64,000 nt of DNA from Candidatus Omnitrophota bacterium (GCA_020429915.1 JAGQKV010000019.1:85727-149726); one strand, 5' to 3'. Positions 45,662 through 56,733 are shown, counted from the stretch's first letter. The notes: generated by a model from the letters alone, not told the origin. Program-made: numbers and translations.

Positions 45662-47485
45662 GTGATGAAGTTTTCTTCTCTGAGTAAAGCCTGGTTGGCG
45701 ACGCCGGCCTTCGTGCTGGCCGCTTTTCTCCTTTACGGAAACACCCTCTCCAGCGCCTTTCATTTCGACGATTTCATCTTTATTGTGCAGAATCCGGAAC
45801 TGACCGATCCCTTTGATATCCGCACGATCTGGGCAGAAGGCAGCGCTCCGACGAGATTTATCGCTTACTGGACCTTCGCCTGGAACTACTATTTTCATCA
45901 GTACGACGTGACCGGCTATCATGTCGTCAATATTTTGATTCACGCGCTGAACGCGATGTTGGTTTATTGGGTCACCGGGTTGCTGGCGACCCGTCTGGCC
46001 GAATCAAACCGGATGCCCGCCAGCCGTGTGCGGGTCGCCGCTGTCATCGCGGCCTTGATTTTCCTGTGTCATCCGCTGCAAACCCAGGCGGTCACGTACT
46101 TGTGCCAACGTTTTGCCTCGTTGGCGACGCTATTCTATGTGCTCGCCGTCGGGTGTTATGTGCGGGGGCGCATGACCGCGCGACCGGTATGGTGGGCCGC
46201 CGCGGGCGTTGCGGCCTTGGCCGGGATGTTCACCAAGCAGATCGTCATGACCCTGCCTGTGACGGTGCTCCTAACGGAATGGTTTTTCTTTCGCGAGGCG
46301 AGGATCACTCCGCGCGCGGTTTGGCGTCACTGGAGATTAATGGCGATGGGAGGGGCGGTATTCCTGCTAATCCCGGCGGTCTATTCTTTCAATGTGCAAT
46401 CCATCCTGCTGCGGGAGTATGAATCCTTGTCCCACCGCGGCGATACACTTGATTTGTGGACCTATTTCCTGACCCAGTCGCGGGTTATCTGGACTTACAT
46501 CCGGTTGCTCGTGTTCCCGGTCGGGCAAAACCTATTGTATGATTTTTCCGCCTCTACCGTGTGGTGGGAGCCGAAGGTCATCGCGGGTTTCAGCGGCATT
46601 ATCGCGCTGACGGCGGCGGCCCTGGTGTGGCGCCGGCGCTATCCGTTGGCTGCCTTCGGTGTCTTGTGGTTTTTTACGACGCTGCTGGTGGAGTCGAGCA
46701 TTATTCCCATCCGGCACGTGATCTTTGAGCACCGCCTGTATCTGCCGATGTTCGGGGTTGCGCTGGTCGCGGCTCAAGTCTTTACCGGACGGCGGCTGCC
46801 GGTCAAAGCGGGGATCGCTTTGGTCACCGCGGCCGTCGTAACGCTTTCCGTGCTGACGATCCGCCGCAATGCCGTGTGGCGCGACGGCATTACCTTATGG
46901 TCGGATGTCCTCGAGAAGTCTCCCGGCCTGATCCGGCCTTACACCCATTTGGCCACCGCCTATTTGAACCAGGGGAATTATGAGCGGGCACTGGAAATCT
47001 ATTCGGCGGCCATCGCGACCGATCCCGAACGGGCCGAGTCCTACAACAACCGCGGAAATGTGTACACGGTCCTCAAACAATATGACCGTGCCCTCGACGA
47101 CTACCGGCAGGCGCTGGTGTTGGACCCGACACTGGAAAAGACGTACAATAACGTCGGGATCATCTACAATAAACGAAAACAATTTGCCGAGGCCCTCGAC
47201 CACTATAACCGGGCGATCGCGCTCAATCCGTCCAATGCCGGCGCGTATTTTAACCGGGCCAATGTGTATCTGCAGCGGAATGAACTCGACAAGGCCTTTG
47301 CCGATTATACGCGCAGTATCGAGAGTAACCCGTTTCAGAAAAAAGCGTATTACTACCGTTCGCAGATTTACGCGACGGGTGGAGATTTTGAGAACGCGTT
47401 GCAGGATGTCCTCGAGGCCCAGTCACTGGGTGTGAAGGTGGATAAGCGGTATGTCGAAGATTTAAGGAAGAAGGTGGCGCCATGA
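45662..47485 (+). CDS. TMTC/PMT-like polytopic membrane protein (DUF1736-type) with C-terminal TPR repeats. Putative protein O-glycosyl(mannosyl)transferase. Paralog 1.
   Basis: 607 aa. Loop-1 motif NTLSSAFHFDDFIFIVQNPEL. HPLQTQAVTYLCQRFASLATLFYV, RLLVFPVGQNLLYDF, IPIRHVIFEHRLYLP. C-terminal TPRs (YNNRGNVY...). Confidence 0.8.
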   Translation: MMKFSSLSKAWLATPAFVLAAFLLYGNTLSSAFHFDDFIFIVQNPELTDPFDIRTIWAEGSAPTRFIAYWTFAWNYYFHQYDVTGYHVVNILIHALNAMLVYWVTGLLATRLAESNRMPASRVRVAAVIAALIFLCHPLQTQAVTYLCQRFASLATLFYVLAVGCYVRGRMTARPVWWAAAGVAALAGMFTKQIVMTLPVTVLLTEWFFFREARITPRAVWRHWRLMAMGGAVFLLIPAVYSFNVQSILLREYESLSHRGDTLDLWTYFLTQSRVIWTYIRLLVFPVGQNLLYDFSASTVWWEPKVIAGFSGIIALTAAALVWRRRYPLAAFGVLWFFTTLLVESSIIPIRHVIFEHRLYLPMFGVALVAAQVFTGRRLPVKAGIALVTAAVVTLSVLTIRRNAVWRDGITLWSDVLEKSPGLIRPYTHLATAYLNQGNYERALEIYSAAIATDPERAESYNNRGNVYTVLKQYDRALDDYRQALVLDPTLEKTYNNVGIIYNKRKQFAEALDHYNRAIALNPSNAGAYFNRANVYLQRNELDKAFADYTRSIESNPFQKKAYYYRSQIYATGGDFENALQDVLEAQSLGVKVDKRYVEDLRKKVAP

Positions 47486-49731
47486 ATTTAGCCAAGTCCG
47501 CGGCCGTCCGGCTGAGCGCCGCGGTGATTATTATTGTGACCGTCGGACTGCTGGCCTACGCGAACAACTACCGCAACAGCTGGCACTTCGACGACCAAAG
47601 CTATATCGTGCAGAATCCGACCATCCGCTCGCTGGACAACTTCAGGGGGATGTGGGATCGGTTGAGCGCCCCGGGGCGGGTTGTCGTTCTGTACAGCTTC
47701 GCTCTCAATTACCATTTCGGCGGGACCGATGTTTTCGGATACCATGTCGTTAACAATGCGATTCATGTTACCGCCGCGGTGTTCGTCTTCGGCATTGTCT
47801 GGATGCTGATGGCCACACCCCGGATGGCGGGATCACCTCCGGCCCGTGGCCGTTGGTTGGTGGCCCTGTTCACAGCATTGATCTTTGTCAGTCATCCGTT
47901 GCAGACGCAGGCGGTTACTTATATTTGTCAACGTTTCGCGTCGTTGGCGACCCTGTTTTATGTTATGAGCGTGTTTTGGTATCTGTGCGGCCGGTTACGC
48001 CGTAGGGGGGCGTCCGTCTATTTTGTCCTGGCTGCGGTGTCCGCGGTCCTGGGGATGTTCAGCAAGCAGATCGTGATTACGTTACCGGTTGTAATCCTGA
48101 TTATCGAATGGCTTTTTTTCGGGGCGTTTACACGGCACGGGGGAAGGCTCCGTATTCCCTGGAAAGTCATCGTCCCCTTGGCCGTGCTGCTTATGATTAT
48201 TCCCGCGCTGTATTCATTTCGGGCCGGGGCCATTCTCTCGATCAAGCACAAATCCTCGGGATCATACCGCGGTGAACTCATCAACCGGCAATCGTATTCA
48301 TTGACGCAATTGCGCGTTATTCCGACGTACATACGCCTGCTCGTGTTTCCCGTGGGACAAAACCTCTTGTATGATTTCAAGACATCCAAGAGTCTGACGG
48401 AACCCAAGACGCTGGCCGGATTAATACTGATCCTGAGTTTGATCGCGCTCGCCCTGGCGCTGCGCCGACGGAACCCGCTGGCGGCCTTCGGAATCTTTTG
48501 GTTTTTTGTGACACTTTCGGTTGAATCCACTGTCATACCGATCCGGCACGTCATTTTTGAGCACCGGGTGTATTTGCCGAGCGTCGGATTTTGTTTGTTG
48601 GCTGCCTCGCTGGTCTATCAGTGGTCCCGGCAACCCCGCCGGGCAGCCGCGGTATTGTCTGTGATTGTTTTGGCCCTGACCGTGCTGACGCACGAACGCA
48701 ACAAGGTGTGGCGGGATGAACTGACGTTGTGGGAAGACGTCAAAGAAAAGTCGCCGCACAAGATGCGCCCGTATCTGAATACCGGCATCGCGCATTCGGC
48801 GAACGGGGAGTTTGAAAAGGCTATTGCCGATTTTCAGATCGCGCTGGAAAAGGTCCCCAACAGCATCATGGCGCTCAATAATCTCGGGATCACCTACACC
48901 CGGCAGCATCGTTATGAAGAGGCCCTCGCCGCGTTTGACCGCGCGTTGGCCATCAGCGACAAATGGGAGGAGGTGTGGAACAATCGCGGCGATGTCTTTC
49001 GGCACCGCGGGGAATTTGCCGCGGCCTTGGCCGACTATGACCGGGCCTTGTCCATCAATCCGCAGATGTACCAAACATTAAGCAATCGCGGGGTGGTTCT
49101 GGCACACTTGGGCCGCGACGAAGAGTCCTTGGCTGATTTTCAACGGTCGCTGGAGATCGCGCCGGGTTTTATTGAGGCCCACCAAAATCGTGGGAATTTG
49201 CTGGGCCGGATGCGCCGCTACGAAGAGGCCATTGCAGATTTCACGGTGGTCATTCGCAGCAATCCACGCATTCCGCAAATCTATAACAACCGGGGCAACG
49301 CCTACCGGCGGCTTAAGCAATATGACCTGGCACTGGCCGACTACAACCGGGCGATTGACCTCGACCCGGATTTTGCCGAGGCCTACAATAACCGGGGAGT
49401 GGTGTATCGTGAACAGGGTCGGGCAGACCTTGCCCTCAAGGACTACGATAAGGCCCTGTCACTCGATCCCCGCTACGTCACCGCATACAATAACCGCGGA
49501 AATCTTCATAAGGTGGAAGGGCGCTACGGAGCTGCCCTTGAGGACTTCAACACCGCGTTGAAGATCGAACCGGAAAACCGGTACGTGTATTTTAACCGTG
49601 CCAAGACGCATTTAAGCCGGCATGATTTTCAGGCCGCCCTGCGCGATGCTGAAATATCCCGGCATCTCGGCTACAGTCAGGCGGCGCCGTTTATCAACCG
49701 TATCAAGCAGGTGATGCATGCCCGGCCTTGA
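47482..49731 (+). CDS. TMTC/PMT-like membrane-TPR protein, paralog 2.
   Basis: 749 aa. WHFDDQSYIVQNP and the same conserved blocks as 45662-47485. 8-9 C-terminal TPR units. ATGA overlap with paralog 1. Confidence 0.8.
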   Translation: MNLAKSAAVRLSAAVIIIVTVGLLAYANNYRNSWHFDDQSYIVQNPTIRSLDNFRGMWDRLSAPGRVVVLYSFALNYHFGGTDVFGYHVVNNAIHVTAAVFVFGIVWMLMATPRMAGSPPARGRWLVALFTALIFVSHPLQTQAVTYICQRFASLATLFYVMSVFWYLCGRLRRRGASVYFVLAAVSAVLGMFSKQIVITLPVVILIIEWLFFGAFTRHGGRLRIPWKVIVPLAVLLMIIPALYSFRAGAILSIKHKSSGSYRGELINRQSYSLTQLRVIPTYIRLLVFPVGQNLLYDFKTSKSLTEPKTLAGLILILSLIALALALRRRNPLAAFGIFWFFVTLSVESTVIPIRHVIFEHRVYLPSVGFCLLAASLVYQWSRQPRRAAAVLSVIVLALTVLTHERNKVWRDELTLWEDVKEKSPHKMRPYLNTGIAHSANGEFEKAIADFQIALEKVPNSIMALNNLGITYTRQHRYEEALAAFDRALAISDKWEEVWNNRGDVFRHRGEFAAALADYDRALSINPQMYQTLSNRGVVLAHLGRDEESLADFQRSLEIAPGFIEAHQNRGNLLGRMRRYEEAIADFTVVIRSNPRIPQIYNNRGNAYRRLKQYDLALADYNRAIDLDPDFAEAYNNRGVVYREQGRADLALKDYDKALSLDPRYVTAYNNRGNLHKVEGRYGAALEDFNTALKIEPENRYVYFNRAKTHLSRHDFQAALRDAEISRHLGYSQAAPFINRIKQVMHARP

Positions 49732-50674
49732 TTCCGGACAACGTTATATTTTGACCGTGACCTTGAACACAACCGTCGACACGATGCTCCGCTACCGGCG
49801 CGTTGGAGGAAGTTGCCGTTTCGAGAAGGAAACCCGTGTGGCCGGCGGAAAGGGGCTCAATGTGTCACGAGCCCTGCGCCGGCTGGGCCGGGCGAGTCTG
49901 GCTGCCGGAATCGTCGGCGGTTGTACCGGGCGGGACATCGAACAGCTGTTACGCCGGGAAGGTCTGCGGTACCGGTTTTATCGGAACGACGCCGAGAGCC
50001 GACAGAATCTCATTCTGTGTCTGCCGGAGTTGTCCCCGGCCAACCGGGTCTTCCGGCAGACGCCGTCGATTTCGGGCCATGGATACAGGGAGTTCCGCGG
50101 ACTCTACCGGGACGCCCTGCATCGGGCCGACATGGCGGTGCTCAGCGGTAGTGTGCTGGACGGACTTCCGCCGGCGGTATACGCGGATTTGATCCGCGAT
50201 GCGCGCCGACGAAAGATTCCGGTGCTGCTGGATGCCAGCGGCACCCCCCTGCGTGAGGGTTTGAGGGCCCGGCCGACGTTCATCAAGCCGAACCTAACCG
50301 AAATTCAACACGCCACCGGTATCCGCGTCCGGACGTTAAACGACGCGGTGAAGGCTGCCGCATCGTTGCGGCGGATGGATCTTCCCAATATTTATCTCAG
50401 CCTCGGCGAGCGCGGGGCGATCGGTTGCAATCATAACGAATTGTGGTATGCTAAGGCGCCGAAGGTCGCCGTCCGCAATACAGTCGGCTGCGGGGACGCG
50501 TTCGTCGCCGCCGTTTGCGCCGCTCACTTGGACAAGCTGTCTTTGTCTGTTGCGCTTTCGTTGGCCGTGGCGGCGGGAACCGTCAGCGCGACCAATTTTG
50601 TTCCGGGTTTGGTCGATCCGACTGCCGTACGCGATATGGCCGCCCGCATTAAATTGAGGAAACTCCCTTTATAG
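49718..50674 (+). CDS. PfkB-family carbohydrate kinase (1-phosphofructokinase/tagatose-6-P kinase-like).
   Basis: 318 aa. GGKGLNVSRAL N-motif and C-terminal TVGCGDAFVAA (PfkB signature 2). Overlaps the upstream gene by 14 nt. Confidence 0.75.
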   Translation: MPGLDSGQRYILTVTLNTTVDTMLRYRRVGGSCRFEKETRVAGGKGLNVSRALRRLGRASLAAGIVGGCTGRDIEQLLRREGLRYRFYRNDAESRQNLILCLPELSPANRVFRQTPSISGHGYREFRGLYRDALHRADMAVLSGSVLDGLPPAVYADLIRDARRRKIPVLLDASGTPLREGLRARPTFIKPNLTEIQHATGIRVRTLNDAVKAAASLRRMDLPNIYLSLGERGAIGCNHNELWYAKAPKVAVRNTVGCGDAFVAAVCAAHLDKLSLSVALSLAVAAGTVSATNFVPGLVDPTAVRDMAARIKLRKLPL

Positions 50675-50686
50675 GAAAGGACCGGC

Positions 50687-51325
50687 ATGGAAACGTTGGA
50701 AGCACACGCCTCCGAATCCACTCACTATATCGACGATACCCTGAGGGCCGAGATCATTGCCCTGTCCAAAGACTTTAAACGTTCCTGGATCAGTCTGGGC
50801 CGGCATTTGTACGCGGTTTGGCAGGACAAACTCTACCGCAACTGGGGTTTTGAGAAGTTCGAGAACTATATCGAAGGGGAAGTGGGACTCAAAAAGAATC
50901 TGGCCACGAAGCTGCTGCGGTCGTACCTCTTTCTCGAGCAGGACGAACCCCAATACCTGGACGCCGAGTTTACCAACGAGCGGGACGCCATGAAAGTGCC
51001 CGGGTATGAAGAAATTAACTTTCTGCGCTTAGCCAAGCACAAGAAGGAAGTGAAGAGAGACGACTACGCCCGGATGAAGAAGGATGTGTTCGAGAAGGGC
51101 AAGAACGCGACGGTGATGCGCAAGGATCTGACCGCGTTGATGAAGGAACGCAAATACGTCGATCCGGATCAGGAGCGCGAAGACCGTCATCAGACAGCCA
51201 TCCGCCGGGTCGTCCATTCCCTGAAGAACTTCCAGAAGGATATGGAAGCCCTGCAGCTCATTCCCGCCGCCATTATGGACGACACCAAGAAATTGCTCGA
51301 CCGCCTGGAAGCCGAGCTGGATTAA
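50687..51325 (+). CDS. Hypothetical protein (first gene of the ATP-grasp cluster).
   Basis: 212 aa, charged and helical. No domain recognised. 2-nt gap to the next gene. Confidence 0.5.
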   Translation: METLEAHASESTHYIDDTLRAEIIALSKDFKRSWISLGRHLYAVWQDKLYRNWGFEKFENYIEGEVGLKKNLATKLLRSYLFLEQDEPQYLDAEFTNERDAMKVPGYEEINFLRLAKHKKEVKRDDYARMKKDVFEKGKNATVMRKDLTALMKERKYVDPDQEREDRHQTAIRRVVHSLKNFQKDMEALQLIPAAIMDDTKKLLDRLEAELD

Positions 51326-51327
51326 GG

Positions 51328-52359
51328 ATGCCGCTAAAATCTCCCGTTAACCTCGATTCGATCAGCGATGAGGCGCTGCTCGGGACCCGGGTCTGCGATC
51401 TTCCTGTTACGGTATCCGGGACCTGGCTGGCGGACTGCGTGGAGCAACTGTACCGGGAGTTGGCGGACAACGGTATTTTGTTCCGGCCAAAATGCTTCCT
51501 TGCCGACGAGTGGCTCACACCGGAAAATGAAACCTGTATCGGCATTCCTTTTTACCTGGCACATCCGCGATTGACCGCCTTGGAAAAACATTTTATGGAA
51601 CGTGCGGAAGGCGAGGAGCGGACCGAGTGCATGAAGCTGTTGCGACATGAGGCCGGTCACGCATTGTACTACGCCTACCGCATCCACGCCCGCCGGAAGT
51701 GGCAGCGTTTGTTCGGTTCGGCCAAGACCGAGTACGGTGAGACCTACCGCTACCGGCCCTACAGCCGCAATTTTGTCAGACATCTCGAGGGCCATTACGC
51801 CCAATACCATCCTGAAGAAGATTTTGTGGAAACGTTCGCCGTCTGGCTCACGCCCGGACTGGACTGGCGCAGCCGTTACCGCGGCTGGAAGGCGCTGGAC
51901 AAACTCAATTACGTGGATCGCCTGATGAATACCTTGCGCGGTCGTCCGCCGCGGCACACCAGCGCCCGTCAATATTGGCGGATCTCTACGCTGCGTTGCA
52001 CCCTGCGGCATTATTACAAACGCAAACGCCGTGCCATGGCCGAGGAATTTCCCGACTTTCATGATTCATTTCTGAAAAAGCGTTTTCTTTCGGGGACGGA
52101 AAACGGCACCGGATCGCAGCCCGCCGCCGCCATTTTGCGTAAATACCGGAAAGAGCTGGTGGACAACATCGCCCTGATTTCCGGAGAACCCAAACACTTG
52201 ATCCGGGAGTTGCTCACGGCCATTCAGAAACGCAGCCGTCAATTGGATCTCTCCACCGTTGACAATGAATCCGCCGTACTGCTGAGCATCTCCGCTTACA
52301 TTACGTCACTCGCCAAGAATTATCAGTACACCGGTCGCTACCGGGGAAAGAAGGCATAA
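51328..52359 (+). CDS. HExxH-motif protein (putative zinc-dependent hydrolase or regulatory domain).
   Basis: 343 aa. LLRHEAGHALYYAY contains HExxH, with a downstream acidic block HPEEDFVETFAVWL. Confidence 0.5.
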   Translation: MPLKSPVNLDSISDEALLGTRVCDLPVTVSGTWLADCVEQLYRELADNGILFRPKCFLADEWLTPENETCIGIPFYLAHPRLTALEKHFMERAEGEERTECMKLLRHEAGHALYYAYRIHARRKWQRLFGSAKTEYGETYRYRPYSRNFVRHLEGHYAQYHPEEDFVETFAVWLTPGLDWRSRYRGWKALDKLNYVDRLMNTLRGRPPRHTSARQYWRISTLRCTLRHYYKRKRRAMAEEFPDFHDSFLKKRFLSGTENGTGSQPAAAILRKYRKELVDNIALISGEPKHLIRELLTAIQKRSRQLDLSTVDNESAVLLSISAYITSLAKNYQYTGRYRGKKA

Positions 52360-52365
52360 CAGGCT

Positions 52366-53373
52366 ATGGGTAGACGAACAAAGGTCTTGATGTTGTTCAG
52401 CAGTCCGTATAACCGTCCGCGGGGATACGATTACGCCGAGGAATTCGCGGACCCCGATGACATGTATACCGAGAATGATGTCCATCGCGCCCTGCTGGAG
52501 AATAACTACGATGTGCGCCTGTTGGGAATTCACAATGATCTGGGAACTTTTTTCGAAGAGATCCGGGAGGATCGACCGGATGTCATCTTTAACCTGATGG
52601 AAGTCTTCGACGGAAAATCGCATTTGGAAAAGAATATCGCCGCCCTGTTGGAAATGGTCGGCATTCCATTTACGGGTTCTTCGTCCGACACGCTGCACCT
52701 GTGCAATAACAAGGAGCTGAACCGCAAGCTCTTTCGTTTTCACCGGATCAAGATTCCATACTTTCAAGCCTTTCACCGTCATCACAAGGTTTGGTTGCCC
52801 AGGAAAATGAGTCTGCCCTGTATCGTTAAACCATTGGCCGAAGAGGCCTCGCGGGGGATCTCCCAGGCCTCGATCGTCGACAGCGAGGAGGCGTTTGTGG
52901 ACCGGGTCCGCTTTATTCATGAGAAGATGCAGCAGGACGCAATCGGGGAGGAGTTTATCGACGGGCGCGAGCTCTATGTTACGGTCATGGGACACAAGAA
53001 GCTGACGGTTTTTCCGCCGCGTGAGATGCGTTTTGGTGAACTGCCGGAGGACGCACGCATCGCGACTTACAAAGCCAAGTGGGACGATCAGTACCGGGCC
53101 AAGTGGGGGATTAAGAGTGTGCATGTCGGCAAGCTTCCCGCGGGGGCCGAGCAGGAGATTGCCGAGGTCTGCAAACGCGCCTACCGCGCGTTGAACGCGC
53201 GTAGCTACCTGCGGTTCGATATTCGGCTTAACAGCGCCGGTCAGGTGTACATCATCGAACCCAATGCCAACCCGTGTATCGCCCGTGTTGACGAAGTGGC
53301 GCTCAGCGCGGAGAAGGCCGGGGTAGCGTTTTCCCGGTTGATCAGGAAGATCGTGCAGCTTGCCGTTAAATAA
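52366..53373 (+). CDS. ATP-grasp ligase of the D-alanine--D-alanine ligase-like family.
   Basis: 335 aa. Pre-ATP-grasp domain, PCIVKPLAEEASRGI, ELYVTVMG, and C-terminal FDIRL...YIIEPNANP Mg/ATP-binding motifs. Confidence 0.75.
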   Translation: MGRRTKVLMLFSSPYNRPRGYDYAEEFADPDDMYTENDVHRALLENNYDVRLLGIHNDLGTFFEEIREDRPDVIFNLMEVFDGKSHLEKNIAALLEMVGIPFTGSSSDTLHLCNNKELNRKLFRFHRIKIPYFQAFHRHHKVWLPRKMSLPCIVKPLAEEASRGISQASIVDSEEAFVDRVRFIHEKMQQDAIGEEFIDGRELYVTVMGHKKLTVFPPREMRFGELPEDARIATYKAKWDDQYRAKWGIKSVHVGKLPAGAEQEIAEVCKRAYRALNARSYLRFDIRLNSAGQVYIIEPNANPCIARVDEVALSAEKAGVAFSRLIRKIVQLAVK

Positions 53374-53525
53374 CTTACCCGCCTGCCGTAGTTATTTCCG
53401 CTTTCTCAAAATCGTAAATCTTACGGTTTCCCGTCGAAAAAATTATTTTAATCGCTTGATTTTGTCGGCATTATCCCAATAATAAAAAGTGTGTCCTTTA
53501 ACAATCTCAGTTAAAAGGAGGCTCC

Positions 53526-54722
53526 ATGACCGACCCGACGCAGATCCCCTTCCTGATTAAGCTCCTCGATGACGAATCACCCAACATTCAAAGCAAAGTC
53601 AAAAGAGAGCTCGATGCCTTCGGCCCCCTGCTGATGAGTGAACTGCGCAAGATTTCATTTCCGCTGTCCAACAGACAAAAGGAAAGTCTGGATCTGATTT
53701 TCGAACGCCAGCAACGGGCGCAGCTGCGTCGTTTGTGGTCGAGCTGGTACACGGTGGAAGGAGGGTATCCCCGGTTGGAGGCGGCCTTGAGCCTTATCAG
53801 CGACTATCTGACCGCCTATGATTACGACATCCGTCTCAGCGGTTTATTGGATGATTTGGCGACGCAATACCGGCGCAAGTACAACAGCAAGGATCCGCGA
53901 CTGCTCGCGCAATTTCTGTTTGATGATCTGGGCATGCAGGGAAACGATGAGGATTACTACAATCCCCAGAACAGCAATATGAACTTTGTCATCAACGAGA
54001 AACAGGGGATCCCCATCAGTCTGGTGAGTATTTACATGCTCGTCGGATACCGGGTGGGAATACCCATTGAGGGATGCCCGTTTCCGGGACATTTCCTGGC
54101 CCGTATCGAATTGTACGGCCAGAACGCGTTTATTGACTGTTACAGTAACGGTCAGCTAATCATGGAAAGCGATTTTCTCAAAGCCCGTGACGAGATCGCC
54201 GAAAACATCACCGATACCCTGTATGAACAAATCTCGACCGAGGCCATGATCCGCCGGTATCTGGCGAACCTGGTGCGAGCCTTCCAGATCGAGGAGGACC
54301 TGACATCCGCCAATTTTGTCGCCGGGCTGTTCGAGGACCTGGAATTCCGCATCGCCAACAAGACCTTCGAAACCATCACGCCGGATCAGATCATCAATTG
54401 CAGTGAACCGCGCTATCTTCCCGGGAATCTGGTTAAACACAGCCGCTACGGTTACCGGGCTATTGTCGTGGACATCGATCCGGAATGCCGGGCCACGGAC
54501 GAATGGTACTATGGTAATCAAACCCAACCATCCCGTGAGCAGCCGTGGTTTCACCTGCTGGTCCACGATTCGGAACAGGTCACGTATGTGGCGGAAAACA
54601 ATTTATTGCCGGATGAGTCCCGTCACGAGATCAAGCATCCGCTGTTATCCTATTTCTTCGTCCGCTCGGATGGAGGCGCTTATCTGCGCAACGAGAATCA
54701 GTGGCCGGAAACGGATTTTTAG
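53526..54722 (+). CDS. Fusion protein: N-terminal transglutaminase-like/SirB1-type domain plus C-terminal YccV/HspQ-like (hemimethylated-DNA-binding-type) domain.
   Basis: 398 aa. C-terminus VKHSRYGYRAIVVDIDPEC...WFHLLVHD closely resembles HspQ (RHSLLGYLGVVVDVDPEY...WYHVVMED). Confidence 0.65.
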   Translation: MTDPTQIPFLIKLLDDESPNIQSKVKRELDAFGPLLMSELRKISFPLSNRQKESLDLIFERQQRAQLRRLWSSWYTVEGGYPRLEAALSLISDYLTAYDYDIRLSGLLDDLATQYRRKYNSKDPRLLAQFLFDDLGMQGNDEDYYNPQNSNMNFVINEKQGIPISLVSIYMLVGYRVGIPIEGCPFPGHFLARIELYGQNAFIDCYSNGQLIMESDFLKARDEIAENITDTLYEQISTEAMIRRYLANLVRAFQIEEDLTSANFVAGLFEDLEFRIANKTFETITPDQIINCSEPRYLPGNLVKHSRYGYRAIVVDIDPECRATDEWYYGNQTQPSREQPWFHLLVHDSEQVTYVAENNLLPDESRHEIKHPLLSYFFVRSDGGAYLRNENQWPETDF

Positions 54723-55485: not shown

Positions 55486-56733
55486 ATGGAATCCGGTGGA
55501 AAATTGATCATGTTCCTCAGCCGGCATTTTGAGGAAATCACCTATGCCTTGGCCGCGCTGCTGAGCCTTTTTTTGGGCATGTATGTCATTTATCAGTTCA
55601 AGCGGCGGCCGCTGGGCGTGCAGGTGCGTTCGTACGTCGAGACCGCCATCGGATCGACGCTCATCTTCCTGTTGCTTTTCGGCAGCACCTTGATATTGGC
55701 CATTTATTGGGCCAACTACAAAAGCCCCTATATCCACTTCGATCTGTATGATTCCATCTCCCGGAATGCCAACTGGGTACGAGAGGATTTGACCATTTAC
55801 CTGGTCAACGACAATGAGCTGATCGCCTTATCATGTGACGGTAACCATCAGGAAGTAGTCTTTACCAGCGACGAGGAGCCCATCCGGCAGTTCGAGTTCT
55901 CGCCGCACGGCCGTTACATACTGGTTTCCACGTATAAAAAGTTGTTCATGATCGATACCGAGGAGAAGAAAGATTGGTTGGTCGATCAGGTCCAGTTGCC
56001 CGGTTCCGAGGAAGATCTGAAGGGATCGATCTCCGGGATCAGCTGGTCGCCCGGAGGGGACAGGTTCTCATATGAACTATCCCGTTGGTCGAATTTCGGG
56101 TCGCAGGCCAAGGTCTACATCTACGATATCAACGACCGTAGCAAGAAGTCGATTGACAGCCCCACCCGCCGGCTGGGTACGCTCTACTGGGACCTGGCCG
56201 GAGAGAATCTGTATTACCTCAAACAGGCTTCCAGTGAACTTGAGGAAAGGCAATTGGTATACAAGCTGAAGGTCTACCGTGTGGACCTGAGCGATCTTAA
56301 GGTTCATTTCGTGGATGATATCATGATGGAAGAGGAGAACTTTTCTCCGATCCATTTGTCATTGCTGGGGATAAAACTATATCAGCCGGAGCGTGGGTTG
56401 ACCTTCGACCGCTTGGGGAATCAAACCGTGCTGAAATCCCGGCAGGGTCACCTGATCGGGATCGACCGTTACAACTATTTCTTCTACCAAGGCAAGTGGT
56501 TCCGCCGACGTCTGTTCCGGGTCAAACGTGACGTAGACACGAGTAAGAAACAGACGATGGTCAACGCCTATGGCGAGCACGTGTTGCGTCAGATCCGGTG
56601 GACGCCGTCCGGCCGTTATGTGGTGATGGACCATAGTTACTGGGGCATTCTCATTATGGACCCGCGGCGCCAGAAGGTGGCCCAGATTTATCCCTATGAC
56701 GTCAATGTTTACGGCTGGTTTTCGGAAATTTAG
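55486..56733 (+). CDS. Membrane-anchored beta-propeller (TolB/WD40-like) protein, function unknown.
   Basis: 415 aa. Two N-terminal TM helices. Repeated FSPHGRY/WSPGGDRF/WTPSGRY blade motifs. Confidence 0.5.
   Translation: MESGGKLIMFLSRHFEEITYALAALLSLFLGMYVIYQFKRRPLGVQVRSYVETAIGSTLIFLLLFGSTLILAIYWANYKSPYIHFDLYDSISRNANWVREDLTIYLVNDNELIALSCDGNHQEVVFTSDEEPIRQFEFSPHGRYILVSTYKKLFMIDTEEKKDWLVDQVQLPGSEEDLKGSISGISWSPGGDRFSYELSRWSNFGSQAKVYIYDINDRSKKSIDSPTRRLGTLYWDLAGENLYYLKQASSELEERQLVYKLKVYRVDLSDLKVHFVDDIMMEEENFSPIHLSLLGIKLYQPERGLTFDRLGNQTVLKSRQGHLIGIDRYNYFFYQGKWFRRRLFRVKRDVDTSKKQTMVNAYGEHVLRQIRWTPSGRYVVMDHSYWGILIMDPRRQKVAQIYPYDVNVYGWFSEI

Follow-up and report, generated by a model that had tools for sequence, protein, structure and literature searches.

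A widespread and apparently uncharacterised gene pair encoding a zincin and a Ddl-related ATP-grasp enzyme, a candidate two-gene ligation module

The stretch of DNA analysed in this study, referred to as the window, comprises 64,000 nucleotides (nt) from a Candidatus Omnitrophota bacterium (GCA_020429915.1, JAGQKV010000019.1:85727-149726), in which two neighbouring genes encode a protein with an HExxH motif, recognised here as a zincin, and an ATP-grasp ligase related to D-alanine-D-alanine ligase (Ddl). It was found that these two genes constitute a real conserved two-gene unit, and we describe them as a widespread and apparently uncharacterised ligation module. We consider it moderately likely that the pair is a self-contained, translationally coupled cytoplasmic module of two enzymes, which makes and breaks an amide (peptide-type) bond. 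The original prediction had proposed a unit of three genes, including one for a protein of 212 amino acids (aa) which precedes the pair; the three open reading frames were reproduced in coordinates, strand and spacing (gaps of 2 nt and then 6 nt), and are as follows:

50687-51325, + strand: open reading frame for the 212-aa protein
51328-52359, + strand: open reading frame for the HExxH protein (zincin), gene 1 of the pair, 343 aa
52366-53373, + strand: open reading frame for the ATP-grasp ligase, gene 2 of the pair, 335 aa

Records from Candidatus Omnitrophica/Omnitrophota metagenome-assembled genomes match the window proteins almost perfectly (P0001 at 100%, P0121 at 99% and P0241 at 100%), and the window gene order is repeated in public contigs. 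Public gene calls place the start of the ligase at 52390, eight codons later, giving 327 aa (L001: 9063). The ATG at 52366, which leaves 6 nt after the zincin stop codon, seems preferable, since the alignment with homologues then retains the first beta-strand, KVLMLF.

If the proposed reading is true, a Ddl-derived enzyme and a dedicated zincin would have been recruited for a reaction outside the cell wall in hundreds of species and at least ten phyla, among them Verrucomicrobiota, Planctomycetota, Acidobacteriota, Myxococcota and Omnitrophota, and the outcome would be either a new metabolite or a new reversible modification of proteins or peptides. With two genes, cytoplasmic products and no accessory partner, the module is an unusually clean target for reconstitution, and the case is strong in that the pairing is exceptionally well conserved, the enzyme departs clearly from Ddl specificity and experiments would be simple.

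Linkage and distribution of the pair

Relatives of the zincin were sought in one genome per GTDB species, with taxa as labelled in the records, and were detected in at least 591 species. Among the matches listed, the phyla include Omnitrophota, Planctomycetota, Verrucomicrobiota, Acidobacteriota, Myxococcota, Bdellovibrionota, Gemmatimonadota and Nitrospirota, with further carriers in Alpha- and Gammaproteobacteria, Dormiibacterota, Binatia, Auribacterota and a Brevinematales bin, and the pair itself is present in at least ten bacterial phyla. The family of the HExxH protein is large, with 7104 matches among 8000 scored candidates (90% clusters) and 1932 clusters at 50% identity, and the ligase family comprises 3424 matches.

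Gene linkage was counted in the best 80 of the at least 591 species loci. In 78 of these 80 the zincin gene is followed directly by an ATP-grasp gene on the same strand, and with explicit assignment of starts and stops the median gap is 1 nt, 71 of the 78 pairs being separated by 30 nt or less and 37 overlapping, mostly by 4 nt of the ATGA type. The identities of zincin and ligase to the window proteins co-vary (r = 0.86), and in the reciprocal direction the ligase homologues P0225 and P0205 were found to have a zincin upstream. In the first of the two exceptions, L074, the contig runs on for only about 350 nt; the other, L090, is considered below with the proposed reaction. The pairing is thus among the strongest gene linkages one can see, translationally coupled and kept in one order, and it bears out the original suggestion that the HExxH protein is functionally tied to the ATP-grasp enzyme.

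All-against-all clustering of 727 open reading frames from the 80 loci revealed no third recurrent family. Clusters 2 and 3 were discarded as antisense reading frames lying over the pair itself in GC-rich genomes, and the next family, a single-domain response regulator, occurs in 6 of the 80 loci, mostly in Omnitrophota. No transporter or regulator gene is linked to the pair in these 80 loci, and no small open reading frame (18-90 aa) is conserved within 700 nt on either side of the pair in the 78 loci. The module is single-copy and lies in a conserved chromosomal context. No plasmid homologues were detected by tblastn, and none of the four proteins tested matched the PADLOC defence-system models; readings as a mobile element and as a defence system were dropped on these grounds.

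Some bins labelled Planctomycetia/Planctomycetales, Nevskiaceae (Gammaproteobacteria), Brevinematales and Auribacterota (L019, L022, L023, L025, L027 and L030) carry pairs that resemble those of Omnitrophota, with identities to the window of 50-54% and 53-61%, as in true Omnitrophota, and L023 also carries the 212-aa gene. Such cases suggest either horizontal transfer or Omnitrophota contigs which have been mis-binned or mislabelled.

In the full-text literature searched, no published description of the pair was found, although an earlier mention remains possible. Two papers that came up concern other families, the CA_C2195 paper an M28-like protein and the CfmP paper a TupA-like ATP-grasp enzyme. 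The idea of an undescribed ligation system therefore remains tenable, as a system of two genes rather than the three originally put forward.

The zincin and the ligase

Sites of interest in the two proteins are listed below. Residues of the zincin were assessed in two alignments, A1 (37 sequences, within Omnitrophota) and A2 (25 sequences, down to 32% identity); those of the ligase were mapped by aligning 54 family members with Escherichia coli DdlB, the sequence of which was verified against PDB 2dln.

51646-51660, + strand: HEAGH, zinc-binding and catalytic motif (His107, Glu108, His111), zincin residues 107-111
51742-51801, + strand: loop TYRYRPYSRNFVRHLEGHYA, zincin residues 139-158, with the conserved pattern YxxRPYSxxFVxHLxxxY
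51796-51831, + strand: 'acidic block' YAQYHPEEDFVE, zincin residues 157-168, with invariant Tyr157, His161, Pro162, Glu164, Asp165 and Glu168
53077-53082, + strand: Lys238-Trp239 in the omega-loop region of the ligase (DdlB Lys215, Tyr216), Trp in 54/54 and invariant in alignment A4
53212-53265, + strand: catalytic and Mg2+ block of the ligase, Arg283, Asp285, Glu298 and Asn300 (DdlB Arg255, Asp257, Glu270 and Asn272), 54/54
53290-53295, + strand: acidic pair of the ligase, Asp309-Glu310 (DdlB Ser281-Leu282), Asp or Glu at both columns in 54/54

The HEAGH motif and the downstream acidic block, both noted in the original prediction, are thus located at residues 107-111 and 157-168. His107, Glu108 and His111 are invariant in both alignments, and the six residues listed for the acidic block are invariant in A2. 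Amongst the 78 pair-bearing loci, HExxH occurs in all and a motif of the YAQYHPEEDFVE type in 76, as judged by a strict regular expression. The protein begins with a beta/alpha region (DEW...IPFYL), continues with the HExxH helix and a helix that bears the Glu, and closes with a C-terminal domain, also helical, of about 130 aa; its conserved blocks in A2 read DEW(F/L)xP...I(G/A)IPFYLxHPxL, LLRHExGH and PYSxxFVxHLxxxYAQxHPxEDFAETFAVWLxP. In zincins such as lethal factor and PPEP-1, a Glu carried by the helix that follows HExxH serves as third zinc ligand, and the transition state is stabilised by a Tyr lying a few residues ahead of that Glu. By analogy, the third zinc ligand is probably Glu164 (or Glu168), and the transition-state residue is probably Tyr157.

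An AlphaFold2 model of the protein (predicted local distance difference test score, pLDDT, 83.8; predicted template modelling score, pTM, 0.79) has a fold which resembles the zincins of anthrax lethal factor, the Pro-Pro endopeptidases (PPEP) and MtfA, so that the fold check called for by the original prediction points to this group. No signal peptide or hydrophobic N-terminus was found in the protein, which is taken to be cytoplasmic for that reason. The only internal stretch with pLDDT below 50 in the AlphaFold2 monomer is the loop at residues 139-158, although it ranks with the best conserved segments of the family, in which Tyr140, Ser146, Val150 and Tyr157 are invariant or nearly so in A2, and in which Arg143, Pro144, Tyr145 and His152 are also conserved within Omnitrophota (A1). 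This loop may be a lid, or an interface for a partner or substrate, which becomes ordered when the ligase or a substrate binds.

Sequence libraries place the zincin only distantly. The Pfam family Peptidase_Mx (PF15887) is matched at 27.6 bits against a cut-off of 27, residues 104-174 covering profile positions 89-164 of 236, and distant members of the zincin family score 26.8-31.7 bits. The family profile finds the Peptidase_Mx structure 4l7a (BACCAC_01431 of Bacteroides) weakly, at E = 0.44, and YAQYHPEEDFVE aligns with its segment PYAGSKPSEDIAE. Both proteins have an HExxH helix followed by a helix with '(P)xED(F/I)AE', and the folds are similar; however, the match is confined to about 70 residues around the active site, and the window family has its own DEWxxP...IPFYL motif and the helical C-terminal domain. 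The zincin is at best a marginal and divergent relative of Peptidase_Mx. In contrast to Peptidase_Mx and lethal-factor-like zincins, including PPEP-1/2/3 and MtfA (M90), it is cytoplasmic and tied to an ATP-grasp partner; none of Peptidase_Mx, PPEP, MtfA and lethal factor is known to be paired with a ligase. The HExxH protein has no NCBIfam model, no match to an M34 or M90 Pfam family at E <= 0.01, and no PDB sequence match with either the single sequence or the profile. Domain fusions were also considered as a source of functional clues and set aside, as no additional Pfam domain is present in the zincin homologues of greater length (P0342, P0384 and others).

For the ligase, the only Pfam model above its cut-off is Dala_Dala_lig_C, at 82.8 bits. 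In PDB searches with the single sequence and with the family profile (A4), only Ddl and VanA structures were matched strongly (1e-34 to 1e-10 for the profile), which identifies a Ddl-clade enzyme; L-amino-acid ligase, PurD/PurK-type enzymes and biotin carboxylases followed far behind, and there was no RimK match in Pfam. All nine ATP, Mg2+ and catalytic residues of DdlB (Lys97, Lys144, Glu180, Glu187, Lys215, Arg255, Asp257, Glu270 and Asn272) are kept in 54/54 members, their equivalents in the window being Lys116, Lys155, Glu195, Glu202, Lys238, Arg283, Asp285, Glu298 and Asn300, and the ATP and Mg2+ motifs are therefore intact as originally described. The window ligase shares the ATP-grasp sub-clade of Ddl (DdlA/DdlB) and Van (VanA/B/C/G) enzymes, with the ATP, Mg2+ and transition-state residues common to both.

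Nevertheless the ligase departs from these enzymes in several respects. It scores about half the cut-off with the NCBIfam Ddl models tested (121.9 bits against 243 and 106 against 245.65; NF002378 and TIGR01205 are among the curated models), lies far under the cut-offs of all 25 listed Ddl, Van and archaeal Ddl-like models, and is only 24% identical to E. coli DdlB. At the D-Ala1 site, formed in DdlB by the triad Glu15-Ser150-Tyr216, Ser150 corresponds to Ala161 in the window (Ala in 34, Ser in 12 and Gly in 8 members of the family) and Tyr216 to Trp239 in 54/54; at the D-Ala2 site, Gly276 is variable and the carboxylate binders Ser281-Leu282 are replaced by the acidic pair in 54/54. Compared with DdlB, the omega-loop region has about 14 extra residues, FNLxExF stands in place of the Ddl N-domain loop HGRGGEDG, and an invariant Glu36 (A4 numbering) at the start of helix 1 is distinct from DdlB Glu15. 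Judged from sequence, the ligase is a Ddl relative and not an orthodox Ddl, with rebuilt substrate sub-sites, and the examination of its specificity loop and sites speaks against a peptidoglycan-type enzyme. The genomic setting is in agreement with this assessment and with the original remark on context, since no cell-wall gene context, whether a dcw/mur cluster or vanH-vanA-vanX, was found around the pair in the window or in the 80 other genomes. Members of the family are named 'D-alanine-D-alanine ligase' by the pipelines of the Joint Genome Institute; considering the sub-threshold scores and the replaced substrate residues, this label is probably wrong, and conclusions drawn from it on the peptidoglycan of little-studied phyla could go astray.

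A possible amide-bond cycle and its alternatives

An intact ligase and an intact peptidase are encoded together, in the same order and with no other constant partner, and for this reason we infer that they may be the two halves of one amide-bond cycle. The ligase would convert a carboxylate to an acyl-phosphate and then join it to an amine, which is the mechanism of all ATP-grasp amidoligases. Neither substrate would be bound as D-Ala is bound in Ddl, since the alignable residues of both Ddl sub-sites have been replaced, and the acidic pair, which occupies the place of the D-Ala2 carboxylate site of Ddl, suggests, on a low-identity alignment, that the nucleophile is positively charged, such as a side chain of the Lys/Orn/Arg type, a polyamine or the N-terminus of a peptide. 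The zincin, with its HExxH...Tyr...Glu site complete, would hydrolyse a peptide bond in the pathway of the ligase and would most likely reverse or trim the ligase product, giving a writer/eraser or a synthesis/turnover pair. A peptide, or a terminus or side chain of a protein, appears a more plausible substrate than a free dipeptide because the fold relatives of the zincin act on polypeptides and because of the extra helical domain. What the analysis establishes is the gene linkage, the two folds, the intactness of the catalytic residues and the departure of the substrate residues from Ddl, whereas a common bond for both enzymes, the charge of the nucleophile and the class of substrate are inferred.

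Couples of a ligase and a peptidase or hydrolase have several precedents, including RimK, which adds a poly-Glu tail to ribosomal protein S6, and RimB; TTL/TTLL and carboxypeptidases; LysX/LysW/LysK; cyanophycin synthetase and cyanophycinase; and carnosine synthase and carnosinase. RimK/RimB, TTL/TTLL and LysX/LysW/LysK follow the writer/eraser logic proposed for the pair, but they employ another ligase clade and another peptidase fold. The general concept of an ATP-grasp 'writer' matched by a peptidase 'eraser' has been summarised (PMC3495828). The pair works like these known couples and belongs to none of them.

Several points weigh against such a cycle. Adjacency and coupling are no proof that both enzymes act on one bond, and the zincin could instead prepare the substrate of the ligase. 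The characterised Ddl-clade enzymes use small substrates, which would favour a small-molecule product over a protein tag. The residue mapping is a sequence alignment at about 24% identity to DdlB, in which the N-terminal 40 residues, the place of DdlB Glu15, are not reliably aligned, and the sequences alone point to a candidate class of substrate rather than to one that could be named. Finally, the zincin homologue at L090 of Planctomycetota bin1080 (CP070830.1, 4935-5993) has no ligase within 5 kb, the one such case among the 80 with good coverage; the genes around it code for a TPR protein, a methyltransferase, a protein similar to MntP and an unknown protein of 233 aa, and a substitute ligase was looked for in this locus and none was found.

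The use of the pair can be read in more than one way. In a rival account, the ligase product is a small molecule, a dipeptide or pseudopeptide in free form that contains a basic amine moiety and serves as osmolyte, storage compound or signal, with the zincin as its dedicated hydrolase; we regard this as possible though doubtful. Carnosine synthase with carnosinase, and the ligase for N-acetylglutaminylglutamine amide (NAGGN) with its M42 peptidase, are parallels, those characterised enzymes to which the ligase is most closely related (Ddl, VanA and L-amino-acid ligase) join small molecules, no third gene for a precursor or carrier would be required, both proteins are cytoplasmic, and the wide spread in free-living environmental bacteria suits a metabolic role. 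Against this, zincins of the lethal-factor, PPEP and MtfA type cut polypeptides in an extended groove while dipeptidases normally have other folds, the extra helical domain of about 130 aa together with the conserved flexible loop of the zincin suggests recognition of a macromolecule, and a linked transporter or regulator is lacking. Within the proposed cycle itself, the ligase may add an amino acid or short tag to a specific cytoplasmic protein or peptide at a basic group, either the N-terminus or a side chain of the Lys type, and the zincin, possibly in complex with it, may take the tag off again; prokaryotes would then have their own version of the tubulin tyrosination/glutamylation cycle, constructed from other folds, and this is a tentative and rather unlikely reading. 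A role in the cell wall, in which an alternative dipeptide or side chain is made for peptidoglycan precursors while the zincin clears the normal product in the style of VanA/VanX, appears improbable. VanA/VanX is a precedent for a Ddl-type ligase gene adjoining a zinc peptidase gene, the ligase falls within the Ddl/VanA clade, and genes with PG_binding_1 and SPOR domains lie within a few kb in Omnitrophota; however, these neighbours are not kept outside Omnitrophota, linkage of the pair to a mur, ddl, fts or vanH-type gene was seen in none of the 80 genomes, the alignable D-Ala1/D-Ala2 residues are all replaced and the acidic pair would repel a carboxylate, and the lethal-factor/MtfA-like zincin differs in fold from VanX, an M15 enzyme of the LAS fold.

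Two further explanations require additional genes. In a system for a peptide made on ribosomes and modified after translation (RiPP), similar to graspetides, the ATP-grasp enzyme would cross-link a ribosomal precursor and the zincin would cut its leader, and an ATP-grasp gene with a protease gene is indeed the basic layout of a graspetide cluster (PMC8939145). We regard this as the least probable of the explanations, since there is no adjacent precursor gene, as seen from the lack of any conserved small reading frame beside the pair, and no linked transporter, the ligase is nearest to Ddl/VanA and not graspetide-like or RimK-like, and the module is single-copy in its conserved context. In an operon of three or five genes, the 212-aa protein would be a subunit or substrate, a transglutaminase-like protein encoded downstream would be a peptidase partner, and LexA would exert control. 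The narrow spacing in the window (2 and 6 nt) speaks for it, as do the recurrence of the order PfkB, 212-aa, zincin and ligase at 48-63% identity in L095-L097 (and in L021 and L023, where the taxonomy is less certain) and the presence of the transglutaminase-like/YccV gene and lexA after the pair in L004. On the other hand, the 212-aa gene is missing from 76 of the 78 pair-bearing species loci and from L004-L009, and it occurs without the pair in L010-L014; dense packing extends over at least nine genes in the window, which leaves little functional meaning in the short gaps. The transglutaminase-like/YccV gene stands beside the pair in none of the 80 species loci, lexA in none save one weak LexA-like match on the opposite strand (L022), and PfkB in one (L023), while the catalytic Cys of the transglutaminase-like domain is absent. 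Comparative genomics largely refutes this operon, which is very improbable as a functional unit, and the proposed two-gene amide-bond module does without any of these neighbours.

Neighbouring genes in Omnitrophota

The genes considered in this section are:

49718-50674, + strand: PfkB-type hexose kinase, upstream, ending 12 nt before the 212-aa gene
53526-54722, + strand: fusion of Transglut_core2 (109.9 bits) and a YccV/HspQ-like domain (79.3 bits), 398 aa
54771-55370: LexA (TIGR00498, 198.9 bits)

The 212-aa protein is all-helical and yielded no match in Pfam, NCBIfam, PADLOC or PDB sequences; since no Pfam family was found across 36 members of its family either, its description as a protein with no recognisable domain holds. 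The family has 87 homologues, of which the majority lack a source name, while the named ones are nearly all given as Omnitrophica/Omnitrophota. Relatives with 43-50% identity occur with no zincin or ligase nearby, following an alpha/beta-hydrolase gene in L010-L011, a PfkB gene in L012 (where a SPOR-domain gene comes next) and a PilZ gene in L013-L014. Conversely, L004-L006, from another Omnitrophota lineage, have the pair with PfkB directly before the zincin, and L007-L009 have it in a wholly different neighbourhood, the pair of L007 standing alone. Only in the window, L021, L023 and L095-L097 does the 212-aa gene lie beside the pair. Since the gene is separable from the pair in both directions, the three genes taken as a unit, the central element of the original prediction, were excluded by the contexts of the 212-aa homologues and the 80 species loci, and this small, Omnitrophota-only family is a neighbour and not a component of the module.

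Downstream of the pair, the domain matches agree with the predicted succession of a transglutaminase-like fusion protein and lexA. A link of these genes to the pair did not survive the comparison, as they follow it in the window and L004 and are nearly absent from the 80 loci, and as a 152-nt AT-rich gap separates them from the ligase gene; this gap contains a sigma-70-like site at 53456-53483, which is a consensus match only. The sequence QGIPISL takes the place of the catalytic Cys, and the His (PGHF) and Asp (FIDCY) positions are retained. Because of the replaced Cys, the protein is probably a binding module and not a peptidase; the combination of Transglut_core2 with YccV is also that of eukaryotic FBXO21. 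The transglutaminase-like/YccV gene and lexA represent local synteny in a subset of Omnitrophota and are not parts of the module. A related comparison, and the one alluded to in the original prediction, is the tagging operon of an ATP-grasp enzyme, an alpha-E protein and a transglutaminase-like peptidase reversing the tag, predicted by Iyer et al. (2009), as far as it is outlined in PMC3495828. It shares an ATP-grasp amidoligase and a peptidase with the window, but there is no alpha-E match among the window neighbours, and the transglutaminase-like gene, in addition to its lost Cys, is unlinked to the pair in other lineages.

Between about 42479 and 53373 all genes of the window point in one direction, and neighbours either overlap or lie at most 25 nt apart. 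These nine genes on the + strand encode a GH15-like protein, a PG_binding_1 protein, a 278-aa unknown protein, two TPR proteins, PfkB, the 212-aa protein, the zincin and the ligase. Segments of this backbone (PG_binding_1 ... PfkB ... LexA ... Tricorn-like ... SPOR ... PMT_2 ... GT2) recur in other Omnitrophota with or without the pair, for example in L004, L012 and L095, and because of this the pair looks like an insertion into a conserved Omnitrophota syntenic region.

The two TPR proteins (45662-47485 and 47482-49731, + strand) are tandem paralogues of 607 and 749 aa whose genes overlap by 4 nt; in each, an N-terminal half of about 400 aa spans the membrane several times and contains an 'HFDD' motif, and a TPR array forms the C-terminal part. 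No significant Pfam match was obtained for the membrane halves, and the architecture is reminiscent of TMTC-type GT-C glycosyltransferases. After lexA, the gene at 55486-56733 (+ strand) encodes a protein of 415 aa that has a membrane anchor at its N-terminus and matches beta-propellers weakly (Tricorn_2nd, from precomputed annotation), an arrangement which is repeated in the Omnitrophota loci L004 and L095.

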